Source: Terriglobia bacterium
Lineage (GTDB): Bacteria > Acidobacteriota > Terriglobia > JAIQFV01
Direction of reading: 5' to 3'
NCBI GenBank assembly: GCA_049685715.1
Contig: JBAVHJ010000508.1
Span: 1-41,942, forward strand
DNA: 41,942 bases
A program made the translations under genes and the position numbers. Shown here in pieces: positions 25,880 to 30,082 of this stretch; position 1 is the stretch's first letter, and every line of letters begins with the position of its first letter. The notes under the pieces are model-generated. The model searched no databases, had not been told where the DNA came from, and saw only the letters and a list, made by a program, of their open reading frames with translations.

Positions 25880-26758
25880 ATGCTGCCGAATCTTAGAAAA
25901 TATTACCGTCCCCGTTCCATTGAAGCGACGCTGCGCCTCCTTAGCGCCAATCCAGTACGGTGCGCCGTGCTGGCCGGCGGGACGCACCTTCTCGCTTCGT
26001 CCCGCCGCGATGTCGAGGATGTGGTCGACATTTCGGCATTGAAGCTCAAAATGGTGAAACGGAAAAATGGAGATGTCTGTATCGGCGCGACGGCCACCCT
26101 GCAATCCATCCTCGAGAATCCCCGATTGAGAAAATTCGCCGATGGAATCCTCGTTGAAGCGTGTCACCGGAACTCTGTGTCCCGGATGATTCGGAATCAA
26201 AGGACGATGGGGGGGGAGATCTGCGCGAACTGGAAACGTTCCGATCTGGCAGCGGTTTTGCTGGCCCTGAATGCCCGGGTGAAGCTCATGAACTTCTCTC
26301 TCGAGGAAAAGGAGATGCTGATTTCCGATTTCTGGTCTATGCCCGCATTTCGGGCTGGGAAAAAGGGCTCCGGCCTGGTGTTTCCCGGGCTGCTCTTGGA
26401 ATTGATCCTTCCGACGCCTGCTCCCCCTTTTGCGGCCGCGTTCGAGCATGTAGAACAGATTGAATCGCAACCCAGCTTTGTGTCTTCGGCAGCGGTTTTA
26501 GAGTTTGGTGAGAATCGCCAGTGTGGGGAGGCGCGGGTTGCCTTGAGCTCTTTCGCTGATGCGCCCTGTCGACTTCCTCGGCTTGAATCGTTTTTGAAGG
26601 GGAAAACGTTGACGCCGGAGTCAGTCGAATCCGCCGCGGCACTGGGGTTCGGTGAGATTCGACCCCTGGTCGACTCACGCGCCTCGGGAATGTACCGCCA
26701 GGCTGTGGCGCCCGTGTTGATTCGACGTTTACTCGGTCGCTGTTTGAAGGGGCACTAA
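25880..26758 (+). CDS. FAD-binding (medium) subunit of a xanthine dehydrogenase / CO dehydrogenase-family molybdoenzyme
   Basis: LAGGTHLL, ATLQSI and RNQRTMGGEI fit the FAD_binding_5 / CoxM-XdhB pattern. It is followed 7 nt later by the 2Fe-2S subunit. Confidence 0.85.
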   Translation: MLPNLRKYYRPRSIEATLRLLSANPVRCAVLAGGTHLLASSRRDVEDVVDISALKLKMVKRKNGDVCIGATATLQSILENPRLRKFADGILVEACHRNSVSRMIRNQRTMGGEICANWKRSDLAAVLLALNARVKLMNFSLEEKEMLISDFWSMPAFRAGKKGSGLVFPGLLLELILPTPAPPFAAAFEHVEQIESQPSFVSSAAVLEFGENRQCGEARVALSSFADAPCRLPRLESFLKGKTLTPESVESAAALGFGEIRPLVDSRASGMYRQAVAPVLIRRLLGRCLKGH

Positions 26759-26765
26759 TCCCGTT

Positions 26766-27470
26766 ATGAAAATGACCATCGCATTGAACGGTGAGGAGAG
26801 GGAATTTGACGTTCCAGCCAACACGACCCTCTTGTCCCTGCTCAGGGACCAGGCAAATTGTTTTAGCGTGAAGCATGGATGCGAAACGGGGGAGTGTGGC
26901 GCCTGCGCAGTGATTTTTGATGGGCGAATCGTCAACGCCTGCATTCTGCTGGCCGCCCAGGCCGACGAGCGGGAGGTCATTACTCTCGAGGGAATCCCTT
27001 GGATCATGGCGACCCTGAACAGCGTGACCCCTAACGTTGAGAGAGCCCCGACGGCTGGGGCGGACGCCACCCTCCAGCCCAACTCATCTGAGCCCCCTAC
27101 GGAATCGAGATCCTCCTTTCAGAATCCTGCAGCCTTCTCCCGGGAGGAGCATCCGTCGGCCTATGAATTGTTACATCCCGTTCAACAGGCTTTTGTCGAT
27201 ACGCACGCCATCCAATGCGGTTACTGTACGCCCGGGATGATCCTGTCGAGCCTGTCGTTACTTGCCGAGAAGGGTTTCATCAATCTGCCTTCGATTAAGC
27301 GGAAAACGAGGGCGCGCTCCGGGCGGAGAAAATCAGGCTCGAAAGGACCGCTTCTCAACGAGCAGGAAATTCGAGACGCCCTAGCGGGCAATCTGTGCCG
27401 TTGTACCGGCTATGTCAAACCCGTCGATGCAGTCCTCCAGGCAGCCGAGAAACTGATCACAGAGCGTTAA
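26766..27470 (+). CDS. [2Fe-2S]-binding small subunit, with two extra insertions
   Basis: Plant-type cluster motif GCETGECGACAV...NAC and second cluster motif QCGYCTPGM...GNLCRCTGY. At 234 aa it is longer than the usual ~160 aa. Confidence 0.85.
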   Translation: MKMTIALNGEEREFDVPANTTLLSLLRDQANCFSVKHGCETGECGACAVIFDGRIVNACILLAAQADEREVITLEGIPWIMATLNSVTPNVERAPTAGADATLQPNSSEPPTESRSSFQNPAAFSREEHPSAYELLHPVQQAFVDTHAIQCGYCTPGMILSSLSLLAEKGFINLPSIKRKTRARSGRRKSGSKGPLLNEQEIRDALAGNLCRCTGYVKPVDAVLQAAEKLITER

Positions 27471-27553
27471 TCCATGGGGGCGGGAGCGCCCTGAGCAAGG
27501 GCCCAGAGCGGAAGAACGCGACAAGTTCCTGTGGGGGTAGAAGAAAAGAAGTT

Positions 27554-30082
27554 ATGCCCACACGCGATTTCAAGAGCGTCAATCAAAACACCCGCCGCGT
27601 TGACAGCGTCAAGCTGGCATCGGGGAAGGGAACGTTTGTGGACGACATCAAATTGGATGCCGTCCTGTATGCAAAGATCCTGCATTCACCGCACGCCCAC
27701 GCCCGCATCAAGAAGATCGACGTGCAGAGGGCGGAACAGCTCCACGGCGTCCATTGTGTTCTTACGTACCGGAATGTGCCCCGGGTTCCTTATACCACCG
27801 CCGGACAGGGGTGGCCTGAGCCGTCCCCCTACGACACCGTGATGTTTGATTCGGTGGTTCGGTTCGTGGGGGACCGGGTGGCTTGCGTGGCGGCGGATTC
27901 CGAGGAAATTGCTGAGCGGGCACTCGATCTGATTGAGGTTGATTATGAGGTCTTACCGGCCAACTTTGATCCACGAAAGGCGATGGATCCCGGCACCCCT
28001 CGACTTCACCTGGAGCCGGACAAACGGGGAATTCATTCTGCCCCGCGAAACATTGCAGCCCATGTCCAGGCCGACGTGGGCGATGTCGAGAAGGGTTTCG
28101 CTGAGGCCGAATGCATTCATGAGGGAGAGTATTCTGTCCATTATGTGCAACAGGCATCCATCGAGCCTCATATCACGATCACTTGGCTGGATGAAGATGG
28201 ACGCCTGATGGTCCGGACGTCCACCCAGGTCCCGTTTCATGTCCGCCGCATTATCGCGCCGTTGATCGGTCTGCCGATACAGAGGATCCGGGTCATCAAG
28301 CCGCGGATCGGCGGGGGTTTTGGCGGAAAGCAGGAAATTCTCATTGAGGACCTGTGCGCCATGGTGACGGTGCGTACCGGGAGACCCTGCCGGCTGGAGT
28401 ACACGAGGGCAGAGGAACTCTATGCCGCACGCACGCGCCATCCGCAGATTGTACGAATGAAGACCGGGGTGAAGAAGGATGGAACGCTGACCGCCATCTC
28501 GATGCGCATCCTCGAAAACACAGGGGCGTACGGCACCCACGCGCTCACGGTGCAATGCGTCAGTGGAAGCCGCGCGTTGTCACTGTACCGCTTTCCCAAT
28601 ATTCACTTTGAGGCCGATGCGGTTTACACGAACCTCCCGGTGGCGGGGGCCTTCCGGGGTTATGGGAGTCCGCAAGGTTTCTTTGCCCTGGATTCGCACA
28701 TGGACGAGTTGGCCGAAAAGCTGGGAATTGATCCCCTGGAATTCAGGAGAAAGAACCATGTGCGCGAGGGAGAGCCGACACCCATCGCCGAGGTGCTGGG
28801 GGAGGGGCGCGAGGGATATAAGCAAATCATCCAAAGCTGTGGCCTCGATGAGTGCATTGAGCTCGGAGCGAAGGAGATCGGGTGGAAGACCCAGCGAAAT
28901 CCGGATCCCCGGGCACGAATCCCCGGACCCACGGTCTTTGATGCGTCGAACTCCGGGATCTCAGGTTTAAAATCTGAAATTTCAAATACGGAATCGAATT
29001 TGAAATCGAATATGCCGCATTTGAAATCTGAAATCTCAAATCTGAAATCCGGAATTCCGGGACCTGTTGTCCGCGGTGTCGGCATGTCGTGTACCATGCA
29101 GGCCTCTGGAATACCCGGTGTTGACATGGGAGCGGCGTGGATCAAGATGAACGAGGACGGCTCCTTCAACCTGAAGGTCGGAGCCACGGATATTGGCACG
29201 GGGGCGGACACCATGTTCGCCCAGGTGGCGGCTGAAACCCTGGGGACCTCACCGGAAAAAATCATTGTCTACTCCTCGGACACCGATATGACGCCGTTTG
29301 ATCCCGGGGCGTACGCTTCGTCAACCACCTACATTTCGGGTGCCGCCGTCAAAAAGGCCTGTGATCAGGTGCGGGAGCAGATCCTTGAAGTGGCCGCGGA
29401 AATGTTAAACCCCAAGAAGGGAATAGCGACTCACCCGCCATCGGAGAGATCTTTGGCCGGGGCAGTGCGGACGGAAAAGAAGGATCTGTTGGTGCACGAT
29501 GGCAAGGTATGCGTGCCCGATGGACGCTTCGTGACCTTCGAACAAATCTGTTTGCGCTCGCTCTACCAGGAAAATCAGTTCCAAATTCAGGGGCATGCGT
29601 CGCACATGTCCTATGATTCTCCGCCGCCCTTCTGTGCCCAGTTTGCAGAAGTGGAGGTCGATGTGGAGACAGGGATCGTGAAGGTCAGACGATTGGTCAC
29701 GGCCGTGGACTGTGGTGTGGCGATTAATCCGAAAATGGCAGAAGGTCAGATTGAAGGCGCAGTGACCCAGGCTCTGGGATATGCGTTGACGGAGCAGATG
29801 GTGTTTGATGAGAAAGGACGACCGTTGAATCTCAGCTTCAGGGACTACAACATCTATACGGCCGTGGACATGCCTGAACTAAGATCCTTCCTCGTCGAGA
29901 CCTACGAACCCACGGGCCCTTACGGGGCGAAAGCGATTGCGGAAATTCCCATTAATGGCGTGGCTCCCGCTATCGCCAATGCGGTCTACAATGCCATCGG
30001 CGTTCGGATTCGCGATCTCCCGATCACGCCGGAGAAGGTGCTGAAGGGCCTGACATCTCTACAGTCCGGCGCTTTGGGGTGA
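27554..30082 (+). CDS. Molybdopterin-binding large subunit (xanthine dehydrogenase / aldehyde oxidoreductase family)
   Basis: RRVDSVKLASGKGTFVDDI, ASIEPH, GGGFGGK, AFRGYG and the C-terminal GAKAIAEIPINGVAPAIANAV are typical of the family. The start is set at ATG 27554. The ORF-track start at 27395 overlaps the small subunit. Confidence 0.9.
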   Translation: MPTRDFKSVNQNTRRVDSVKLASGKGTFVDDIKLDAVLYAKILHSPHAHARIKKIDVQRAEQLHGVHCVLTYRNVPRVPYTTAGQGWPEPSPYDTVMFDSVVRFVGDRVACVAADSEEIAERALDLIEVDYEVLPANFDPRKAMDPGTPRLHLEPDKRGIHSAPRNIAAHVQADVGDVEKGFAEAECIHEGEYSVHYVQQASIEPHITITWLDEDGRLMVRTSTQVPFHVRRIIAPLIGLPIQRIRVIKPRIGGGFGGKQEILIEDLCAMVTVRTGRPCRLEYTRAEELYAARTRHPQIVRMKTGVKKDGTLTAISMRILENTGAYGTHALTVQCVSGSRALSLYRFPNIHFEADAVYTNLPVAGAFRGYGSPQGFFALDSHMDELAEKLGIDPLEFRRKNHVREGEPTPIAEVLGEGREGYKQIIQSCGLDECIELGAKEIGWKTQRNPDPRARIPGPTVFDASNSGISGLKSEISNTESNLKSNMPHLKSEISNLKSGIPGPVVRGVGMSCTMQASGIPGVDMGAAWIKMNEDGSFNLKVGATDIGTGADTMFAQVAAETLGTSPEKIIVYSSDTDMTPFDPGAYASSTTYISGAAVKKACDQVREQILEVAAEMLNPKKGIATHPPSERSLAGAVRTEKKDLLVHDGKVCVPDGRFVTFEQICLRSLYQENQFQIQGHASHMSYDSPPPFCAQFAEVEVDVETGIVKVRRLVTAVDCGVAINPKMAEGQIEGAVTQALGYALTEQMVFDEKGRPLNLSFRDYNIYTAVDMPELRSFLVETYEPTGPYGAKAIAEIPINGVAPAIANAVYNAIGVRIRDLPITPEKVLKGLTSLQSGALG
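28967..29050 (+). repeat. AT-rich internally repetitive segment embedded in frame in the large-subunit gene
   Basis: ttaaaatctgaaatttcaaat (28967-28987) and ttgaaatctgaaatctcaaat (29021-29041) match at 19 of 21 positions. Further TGAAATC units are present. The segment encodes LKSEISN...LKSEISNLKS. Confidence 0.7.

Follow-up and report, generated by a model that had tools for sequence, protein, structure and literature searches.

Short repeated DNA that is found within bacterial genes has been described in several forms. Dispersed heptanucleotide repeats, known from Mrazek et al. (2007) as "long SSRs" (see the summary in PMC4679880), include TAACTGA repeats in Beggiatoaceae and cyanobacteria (PMC4679880) and GGGAATC and GGGGAYT repeats in Xanthomonas and Nostoc (PMC4692102). 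Those copies that fall within genes are located at protein ends or between modules, and some orientations contain stops in every frame; heptanucleotide simple sequence repeats also drive phase variation in other bacteria (PMC4679880, PMC4692102). The RPEs of Rickettsia are discrete elements of ~150 bp that belong to defined families, each with a conserved peptide (summarised in PMC10969869).

The insert that we describe here lies in a gene for an XdhA-like molybdopterin-binding large subunit, on a 41,942-nt stretch of DNA to which we refer as the window (features in Table 1). It belongs to the known translated heptanucleotide repeats and is RPE-like in its behaviour, while the repeat unit and the host differ from those described. 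As in the known heptanucleotide repeats (PMC4679880, PMC4692102), 7-nt units are arranged head to tail, usually three to four per array; there are tens to hundreds of loci per genome, mainly intergenic and with few in genes; the phylogenetic spread is patchy; arrays often occur as opposed pairs able to form hairpins; and close relatives differ by whole units (21 nt in the case of a gene on contig C302). The differences are that the unit is YTSARAT, with a CCGCAAT/CCGAAAT variant, that it occurs in a genus of soil Acidobacteria (Terriglobia), and that a stepwise history within one enzyme linker can be read from the orthologues. The YTSARAT unit, being AT-rich, cannot form a G-quadruplex. Our literature search found nothing that combines Acidobacteria with heptanucleotide repeats.

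In common with RPEs (PMC10969869), this is palindromic repeated DNA that is found between genes and also in frame in unrelated metabolic genes, where it is read as an added peptide at places that the fold can accommodate. It differs from them in that repetition is confined to the 7-nt unit, whose arrays vary in length, and in that the remainder of the insert is unique and changes in length between species. The original prediction had likened the insert to RPEs, and the likeness is good as regards the hairpin, the reading frame, the permissive loop and the presence of arrays in at least two other genes, but does not extend to a discrete element with conserved length and sequence at many sites. 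In Nostocaceae, very small dispersed repeats are reportedly linked to short tandemly repeated heptamers, sometimes nested and sometimes within coding sequence (work attributed to Elhai et al., 2008). A similar arrangement is seen in one orthologue (P0008), which has a 60-nt hairpin-bearing piece between two arrays in the same loop, although the phylum and the sequences are different and the window's own copy contains no nested small element.

Table 1. Features of the XdhA-like gene and its linker insert (positions in the window).
Feature	Position	Strand	Remarks
XdhA-like molybdopterin-binding large subunit gene (xanthine dehydrogenase / 4-hydroxybenzoyl-CoA reductase family)	27554..30082	+	Pfam, NCBIfam and structure matches
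Variable linker holding the entire insert	28910..29071	+	Residues 506-559 of the 895-aa frame; orthologue alignments, AlphaFold2, pN/pS
Left part of the loop, GC-richer, RARIPGPTVFDASNSGISG	28910..28966	+	Genus-level clade only, hypervariable; predicted hairpin joins its 3' end to the right-hand array
IPGP-coding 12-mer, first copy, ATCCCCGGACCC	28919..28930	+	Paired with the second copy in G000 and G001 only
Heptamer array 1, TTAAAAT CTGAAAT TTCAAAT, encoding LKSEISN	28967..28987	+	Three units
Spacer, 33 nt, encoding TESNLKSNMPH	28988..29020	+	Forms a 54-nt module with array 1; three copies in G003, one here
Heptamer array 2, TTGAAAT CTGAAAT CTCAAAT CTGAAAT CCGGA, encoding LKSEISNLKSG	29021..29053	+	Four units
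IPGP-coding 12-mer, second copy, ATTCCGGGACCT	29054..29065	+	Other sequences at this place in G002, G003 and P0004

The open frame of the XdhA-like gene runs from a GTG at 27395 to 30082 (895 aa; 927 aa if measured from stop to stop), and the start is likely the ATG at 27554 (MPTRDFKS). The protein contains PF01315, PF02738 and PF20256 (Pfam), which correspond to an a/b-hammerhead domain and two Moco-binding domains. Its top NCBIfam model is XdhA (NF043082), with a score of 706.8 bits that lies under the 780-bit cut-off, and so we treat the protein as an XdhA-type family member without a substrate assignment. The closest solved structure is 1rm6_A, and the first Foldseek match is also 1rm6 (E = 7.7e-61), which has the XDH/4-HBCR fold. 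Near homologues are 842 aa long, that is, 895 minus 53. The protein is the Mo subunit of a three-subunit enzyme, with FAD and 2Fe-2S subunits, encoded at about 25880-30082.

All of the features that the original prediction read from the sequence are recovered by the analysis, at the positions given there. The two IPGP sites are present and are spaced 135 nt apart, and the segment is in frame with the ORF of 27395-30082, which reads IPGP-TVFDASNSGISGLKSEISNTESNLKSNMPHLKSEISNLKSG-IPGP. The segment is AT-rich (GC of 0.34 in 28950-29049, vs 0.55-0.62 in the flanks), and TGAAATC occurs four times at 29022-29049 (Tandem Repeats Finder). The 20-mer TGAAATCTGAAATCTCAAAT is found again at 28968 with two mismatches (no matches in 100 shuffles of the window), and the opposite strand does read ...FEISDFK..., within a minus-strand ORF of 201 aa (28660-29265). 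The repeat unit of the insert is 7 nt, with the consensus YTSARAT read as LKSEISN, and is arranged in two arrays around the spacer. Array 2 is the most conserved part of the insert, and is the counterpart of the single array in family-level relatives. Stops are avoided in that every third heptamer has C rather than G at the S position of its T-S-A codon, giving TCA (Ser) and not TGA.

The insert is restricted by lineage, and the orthologues form a graded series: outgroups lack the motif, family-level relatives have one array (SQISNLKSE), and members of the genus have an array-spacer-array arrangement. In the tree, a clade of 15 rows has a single SxISNLKS unit, and a clade of six rows (SH-aLRT 100) has array-spacer-array. 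The loop of G003 is extended by a further 108 nt, comprising two 54-nt modules for a total of four arrays, and its units U2 and U3 are identical at 46 of 54 positions; in the P0006 lineage the loop is contracted. Insert lengths range from ~30 nt to ~270 nt among orthologues, and all eight sequenced versions of the loop are in frame. The single unit in P0009 reads CTCAAATCTCAAATTTGAAATCTGAG, which is an intergenic-type core (compare the intergenic array on contig C526). In the alignments, the more distant members of the family do pass almost straight into the RG(V/I)G(M/I) strand, as had been expected. The proposal of a lineage-specific in-frame insertion holds as regards the extra piece and its frame, but the graded series and the contraction do not describe one discrete element; stepwise growth in place fits the series (none, one, array-spacer-array, four arrays, one contraction) better than a single 135-nt insertion. 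A search of the genome with the non-array parts of the insert found no further copy, and the locus on contig C508 is a singleton in flank clustering.

The structural position of the insert is that of a linker between two Moco-binding domains. It is located between PF02738 and PF20256, and connects the helix of residues 484-508, in the first Moco domain, to the strand of residues 558-568 (RGVGM), in the second. In the AlphaFold2 model, which is based on an alignment of 110 sequences (an earlier alignment of 18 sequences gave a mean pLDDT of 52), residues 512-555 are predicted to be coil with pLDDT < 50 (27-35 for the loop), and the flanks are well predicted. Unrelated indels occur in the same linker in other lineages (P0008, P0014 and P0024), making it an indel hotspot. 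Nicotinate dehydrogenase (NdhL/NdhM, PDB 3hrd) has a break in the polypeptide at this same linker: 3hrd_A aligns to residues 57-468 of the query and beyond, and 3hrd_B begins near residue 557. The case is one of a split gene and not of inserted repeats, and the break indicates that the site tolerates complete interruption.

The loop evolves under relaxed constraint, with pN/pS values of 0.6-0.9, as compared with 0.09 in the remainder of the gene. Codons that vary in amino acid account for 32 of 36 in the non-array loop but only 126 of 770 elsewhere in the gene (p = 4e-20); within the two LKSEIS arrays, which are better conserved than the spacer, the count is 6 of 18. GC3 is 0.22-0.44 in the arrays and 0.69 in the gene. 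DNA-level and peptide-level constraint were compared by exploiting the coprimality of 7 and 3: of the 12 variable array columns, nine coincide with degenerate positions of the heptamer (p = 0.17) and seven with third codon positions (p = 0.07). The synonymous share of array variation (7/12) does not differ from that of the gene (404/627).

The unit belongs to a dispersed family. Runs of at least three tandem units of [CT][CT][GC][AC][AG]AT give 80 matches in this genome, at ~50 loci that are mostly between genes, as compared with none in three shuffles, and so the unit is not unique to this site, in agreement with what had been supposed. All four genomes of the genus contain YTSARAT x3, each with 16-34 occurrences per strand, and a control with the reversed pattern had no matches in any of them. 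YTSARAT x3 is absent from G004 and G005, which represent sister genera of the same family and have short, non-repetitive XDH loops. Most arrays lie in short ORFs or in none, with a minority in genes (the ORF context was assigned without running a gene caller); only the XDH ORF and the ArgZ-like ORF of contig C302 have runs of at least three units well inside a long ORF. An intergenic element family of ~250 nt with an array core has 9-10 copies. At three loci that were compared, the intergenic arrays have the same positions in G000 and G001, with no trace of recent movement, and no clean empty site was found at these loci, where the segments could not be aligned to G002 or G003.

Parallel cases are present in other genes of the genus, in-frame arrays being found in XDH, the ArgZ-like gene, HypF and one four-helix-bundle gene, whose internal array reads HLKSEISDLKS. 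The ArgZ-like gene has, in an inter-domain loop, a 77-nt in-frame array that is absent outside the genus, and G000 is longer here than G001 by exactly 21 nt (three heptamers). The HypF loop array is likewise genus-specific and in frame, reads PQSGIRNPNS, and is lacking in G005. In G002, the third A of the HypF unit (family position 6) is C in all four of four units, a change from CCGCAAT-type to CCGCACT-type. In both HypF and the ArgZ-like gene, these type-ii arrays are read as IRNPQSA, a peptide quite unlike LKSEISN, and they show the same behaviour.

The segment is an imperfect palindrome, with arms of 48 nt each (28947-28994 and 29012-29059) that are 73% complementary. Its RNA folding gives z = -2.6, within the range of -1.9 to -4.8 for array-bearing orthologues, and orthologues without an array have z > 0. 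We rejected a conserved RNA structure because the predicted minimum-free-energy topologies vary between species, even though all are self-complementary; an Rfam search of ten intergenic array-bearing loci returned nothing but spurious matches of the microRNA-hairpin type, at one perfect hairpin.

Such a palindrome might represent a discrete mobile element, RPE- or MITE-like and ~135-150 nt in length, which entered the gene by a single transposition, duplicated its target (IPGP or GAAATCCGG) and stayed in frame thereafter. The better-than-shuffled folding of all array-bearing orthologues, the related arrays dispersed in the genome, the in-frame arrays in further genes, the ~250-nt intergenic elements with their array core, and the occurrence of GAAATCCGG on both sides of the loop in G000-G002 are all in keeping with this. 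We nevertheless consider it unlikely, as the insert has no fixed length (one 27-30-nt array in relatives, four arrays in G003), its non-array parts have no counterpart elsewhere in the genome, and the intergenic arrays occupy shared loci in G000 and G001. The target duplication that the original prediction saw in the IPGP pair is not supported by the junctions of five orthologues, among which the pair is limited to G000 and G001; the junction residues elsewhere are ILGS.../VSHP (G002), ILGP.../VSRR (G003) and IPAG.../DSGP (P0004). Both junctions have only GAAATCCGG in common, and as this sequence is a repeat unit of the heptamer type, it provides no independent evidence for a duplication. On the same junctions, we rejected a target-site duplication, and likewise conserved ends with terminal inverted repeats. 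Selection could instead act on the peptide, with the LKSEISN heptads serving as an amphipathic linker or as a docking segment between the Moco domains or to a partner subunit. LKSEIS is retained in all members of the genus while the remaining loop varies, a period of seven residues puts Leu and Ile at i and i+4, and P0007 preserves SQISNLKSE by six synonymous and no non-synonymous codon changes relative to P0009 although its DNA repeat is destroyed, which suggests that some selection on the peptide is possible. Against this, the copy number varies from one to four, the lineages of G004, G005, P0006 and P0012 have an eroded motif, the segment is modelled as coil with pLDDT < 35, and the type-ii arrays behave alike despite their different peptide; furthermore, an explanation at the peptide level has no need of the low array GC3 or of the same DNA motif being common between genes. 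A selected module appears quite improbable.

Heptamer repeats are prone to slippage, and a 21-nt step separates G000 from G001 in the ArgZ-like gene; both would be in keeping with a contingency (phase-variation) switch, in which gain or loss of a single 7-nt unit would shift the frame and turn the enzyme off or on within populations. We regard this as very unlikely, given that the eight XDH loop versions include no frameshifted allele among assembled sequences, and that the arrays are short (3-4 units) and imperfect, leading to less slippage. There is next to no probability that the insert is an assembly or binning artefact, that is, a repeat-induced chimeric join in a fragmented metagenome-assembled genome. 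The genome is in 754 contigs, and assemblies are often broken or wrongly joined at repeats, but three further genomes of the genus, as well as independent NCBI and ENA metagenome contigs, have the same in-frame insert at the same place, and these independent assemblies refute the artefact.

The explanation that we favor, and consider probable, is that the XdhA-like linker holds a translated heptanucleotide array that grew in place and is carried as a tolerated passenger. A single array of ~27-30 nt, belonging to the dispersed YTSARAT family and read as SQISNLKSE, would already have been in the loop in the common ancestor of the family-level clade; it may have been inserted as a ready-made array or have nucleated in place, as both fit. 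Within the genus, duplication of repeat-bounded pieces would then have led to array-spacer-array, with two more 54-nt modules in G003 and contraction in one lineage, likely by slipped-strand mispairing or unequal recombination between repeats. The frame would have been kept since only length changes in multiples of 3 nt survive (21 nt for three heptamers; 54 nt for one module). Judging from the intact frame in eight sequences, the surface-linker insert is presumably translated, and the resulting loop peptide would be disordered, nearly unconstrained and tolerated by the enzyme. Growth and shrinkage in frame, by whole-codon steps, look like those of a tolerated passenger at the DNA level rather than of a new functional part, that is, a catalytic or structural innovation.

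On a broader scale, the heptamer arrays, rather than being passive products of slippage, could be traces of an active spreading process that operates in Acidobacteria and may be connected with cassettes of PF05635 four-helix-bundle genes (23S-rRNA-intervening-sequence type), with the linker arrays being old, remodelled landing sites. Four-helix-bundle genes average 10.2 in array-bearing and 2.2 in array-free genomes (Spearman 0.57, p = 1e-4, uncorrected for phylogeny), and one of these genes contains the array itself, as noted above. Their physical linkage to the arrays is weak, with only two of 52 array loci within 300 nt of such a gene, and G005, which has 10 four-helix-bundle genes and no array, counts against a spreading process, to which we accordingly give little credence.

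Whatever the source of the arrays, the heptamer-repeat family of this soil Acidobacteria (Terriglobia) genus has no earlier description in the literature that we searched. It is expected to yield recurrent low-complexity "hypothetical" peptides (of the FEISDFK, IRNPQSA and IADCGL types) and odd loop inserts in annotated proteins. For work on the enzyme, there is probably no need to take account of the insert, and constructs for expression or structural studies could probably do without it. The locus is a clear, datable example of a non-coding simple repeat turning into part of a protein, and the three conditions for a 7-nt repeat in a gene can all be read from the orthologues: a permissive linker, steps in multiples of three (e.g., 21 nt), and avoidance of the stop-forming variant of the unit.

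The insert is read in frame within the molybdopterin (Mo) subunit gene, whose translation gives IPGP-TVFDASNSGISGLKSEISNTESNLKSNMPHLKSEISNLKSG-IPGP, with the two IPGP-coding sites located as originally noted (Table). Its AT-rich contrast with the surrounding gene also held (GC 0.34 in 28950-29049 vs 0.55-0.62 in the surroundings), as did its internal repetition, which consists of tandem heptamers (YTSARAT, reading LKSEISN) and a 20-mer whose imperfect recurrence was never seen in shuffles of the window. The insert forms an imperfect palindrome with 48-nt arms (73% complementary), and the folding predicted for its RNA is better than that of 198 of 200 shuffles. Since 7 and 3 share no factor, a perfect (CTGAAAT)n repeat contains TGA in all three frames; in the Mo-subunit gene, a heptamer that places its third base in a T-S-A codon uses the C variant without exception (ATC TCA AAT). 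An open frame requires this, so it does not count as independent evidence. Length differences between relatives are 21, 54 or 108 nt.

Coordinates of the insert, its host gene and heptamer-bearing loci elsewhere in the genomes
Feature	Location	Remarks
2Fe-2S subunit ORF	26766-27470	window
Mo-subunit ORF	27395-30082	window
Extension upstream of homologues' start	27395-27553	53 codons; overlaps end of 2Fe-2S subunit ORF; AlphaFold2 pLDDT <35
IPGP-coding sites	from 28919; from 29054	ATCCCCGGACCC; ATTCCGGGACCT
Array 1; spacer; array 2	28967-28987; 28988-29020; 29021-29053	
TGAAATC x4	29022-29049	Tandem Repeats Finder
20-mer, second occurrence	28968	TGAAATCTGAAATCTCAAAT, 2 mismatches
ArgZ-like Rossmann domain gene, array	C302:524-586 (L054)	77 nt, in frame, ...KSKIRDSKSKIRNPQSAIRNPKY...
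HypF, array	C260:882-902 (L062)	in frame, PQSGIRNPNS from CCGCAAT-type units
PF05635 four-helix-bundle gene	C158:328-648	HLKSEISDLKS from same array, in last helix region
Tandem PF05635 domains	G003:C9:18486-19343	two domains, array in each, one 444-aa open frame
Intergenic array	C375:6811-6833 (L021)	~340-nt spacer in G000/G001
Equivalent place in relatives	G002:C35, G003:C100 (L047, L048)	GC-rich terminator-like hairpin
~200-250-nt element copies, own genome	C20:2645, C222:442, C237:7391, C315:1630, C355:3987	
Further copies, own genome	C599:5470, C724:234, C433:8617, C434:3889	
Tandem ~145-nt units	C735:18560-18980	two to three units, long heptamer array at end of each
Perfect long hairpin	C682:1-75 (L028)	CCTTCCCCCAATGGGATC ... 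GATCCCATTGGGGGAAGG, array at tip

The host ORF has the domain set of the xanthine dehydrogenase family, an a/b-hammerhead plus two Moco-binding domains. Among NCBIfam models it scores best with XdhA, but under that model's cut-off, and the nearest solved relative is the alpha subunit of 4-hydroxybenzoyl-CoA reductase. Since homologues have 842 aa or fewer, translation probably starts at ATG 27554. Orthologous contigs share the gene order amidohydrolase, FAD subunit, 2Fe-2S subunit, Mo subunit and convergent Fe-S protein. By their source names, close homologues put the organism in Terriglobia (phylum Acidobacteriota). The insert occupies the linker between PF02738 and PF20256, immediately ahead of the RGVGM strand, and the two matched blocks of the 4-hydroxybenzoyl-CoA reductase alignment stop and resume on either side of it. 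Nicotinate dehydrogenase is naturally split at this place into two chains (3hrd_A, query residues 57-468; 3hrd_B, 562-885), and three homologues from other lineages (P0008, P0014 and P0024) carry unrelated extra segments here. In the AlphaFold2 model (110 homologues, mean pLDDT 70.9, pTM 0.72), residues 512-555 are coil with pLDDT 27-35, flanked by well-predicted elements, and we infer that the loop is solvent-exposed. In the P0008 loop (metagenome contig L018), two opposed heptamer arrays enclose a ~60-nt piece in which two small hairpins lie, an arrangement suggestive of another small element inserted into the array.

Alignment of orthologues places the insert in frame in all four genomes of the genus (G000, the window's own, to G003). 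The G003 loop is longer by 108 nt, representing two additional copies of a 54-nt module (array plus spacer), and its units U2 and U3 are identical at 46 of 54 positions. G004 and G005, from two other genera of the family, have a short, non-repetitive loop, and more distant homologues have none. Several metagenomic homologues at 82-84% identity (P0007, P0009 and P0011) contain a single SQISNLKSE unit or a close variant of it, with a looser version in P0010; P0005 has two adjacent units, and P0004 has array-spacer-array. In the tree, all motif-bearing sequences fall within one clade of 15; the expanded forms group, together with P0006 and its contracted loop, in a single clade of 6 with strong support. 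The single unit of P0009, CTCAAATCTCAAATTTGAAATCTGAG, is indistinguishable from intergenic arrays; P0007 encodes the same peptide, but its DNA has lost the repeat through six synonymous codon changes.

A search of the window's own genome (754 contigs, GC 0.556) for at least three consecutive heptamers of the form [CT][CT][GC][AC][AG]AT returned 80 hits at about 50 loci, vs 0 in shuffles, so that the unit does recur beyond this gene. The family divides into a YTSARAT sub-type, whose typical form CTGAAATTTCAAATTTGAGAT is a pseudo-palindrome, and a CCGCAAT/CCGAAAT sub-type. Triple YTSARAT occurs 16-34 times per strand in every genome of the genus and was not found in G004 or G005; the dispersed family therefore tracks the expanded insert. 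It is also present, patchily, in further genera of the class (G032, G040, G016, G034, G008 and, with two reverse-strand hits, G024). At the three loci compared, G000 and its close relative G001 share the positions of their intergenic arrays. Neither G002 nor G003 yielded a clean empty site, because the array-holding segments cannot be aligned to them. At the C375 locus, the same two genes flank the array-holding spacer and the hairpin of G002/G003. Some heptamer cores (21-28 nt) lie inside a ~200-250-nt intergenic element with conserved flanks (...GGCACGGGCCGATCGCAGCG... / ...GATCGGGRACTGCCTCGCGACGGGGCTGAAG...), a candidate MITE or unknown RNA; the four copies searched against Rfam had no match. 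The C682 hairpin drew spurious microRNA matches in Rfam.

Arrays also lie in frame in other genes. That of the ArgZ-like gene is exactly 21 nt (three heptamers) longer in G000 than in G001, shorter in G002 and G003, and absent from relatives outside the genus (orthologues compared, L055-L058). The HypF array is genus-specific, with none in G005; in G002, all four units carry C in place of their third A (family position 6), giving the CCGCACT type (orthologues L063-L066), a pattern suggestive of concerted repeat evolution. Across 41 genomes from the class, PF05635 genes average 10.2 in array-bearing vs 2.2 in array-free members; without phylogenetic correction, the Spearman coefficient is 0.57 (p = 1e-4). 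G005 lacks arrays despite having 10 such genes, and in G000 just 2 of the 52 array loci have one within 300 nt.

Comparisons among species of the genus give the loop an uncorrected pN/pS of 0.6-0.9 vs 0.09 for the rest of the gene. Amino-acid-variable codons make up 32 of 36 in the non-array loop vs 126 of 770 elsewhere (p = 4e-20), with the arrays intermediate (6 of 18). GC3 is 0.22-0.44 in array codons and 0.69 in the gene. The arrays may be maintained by selection on the DNA or on the peptide, or through homogenization of the repeat. Loops of all array-bearing orthologues fold better than shuffles (z -1.9 to -4.8), while those of array-less orthologues do not. The predicted shapes differ from species to species, which suggests that self-complementarity comes with the repeat family rather than reflecting a conserved structure.

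A target duplication represented by the IPGP pair is disfavored, as the pair is confined to G000 and G001. The suggested likeness to Rickettsia palindromic elements (RPEs) applies to behavior, in that the repeat DNA is palindromic, presumably translated and found in more than one gene, but not to membership, because there is no discrete element of fixed length. The closest described systems are heptamer repeats dispersed in the genomes of Beggiatoaceae and cyanobacteria (TAACTGA) and of Xanthomonas and Nostoc (GGGAATC), which like the insert have in-gene copies at module boundaries (PMC4679880, PMC4692102). The best-supported reading of the sequences is that the insert represents a translated heptanucleotide array in a permissive inter-domain linker. 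The array would have been seeded in the loop before diversification of the family-level clade, and repeat-mediated duplication and deletion would then have expanded and contracted it in frame-keeping steps, with the protein carrying it as a nearly neutral, disordered loop.
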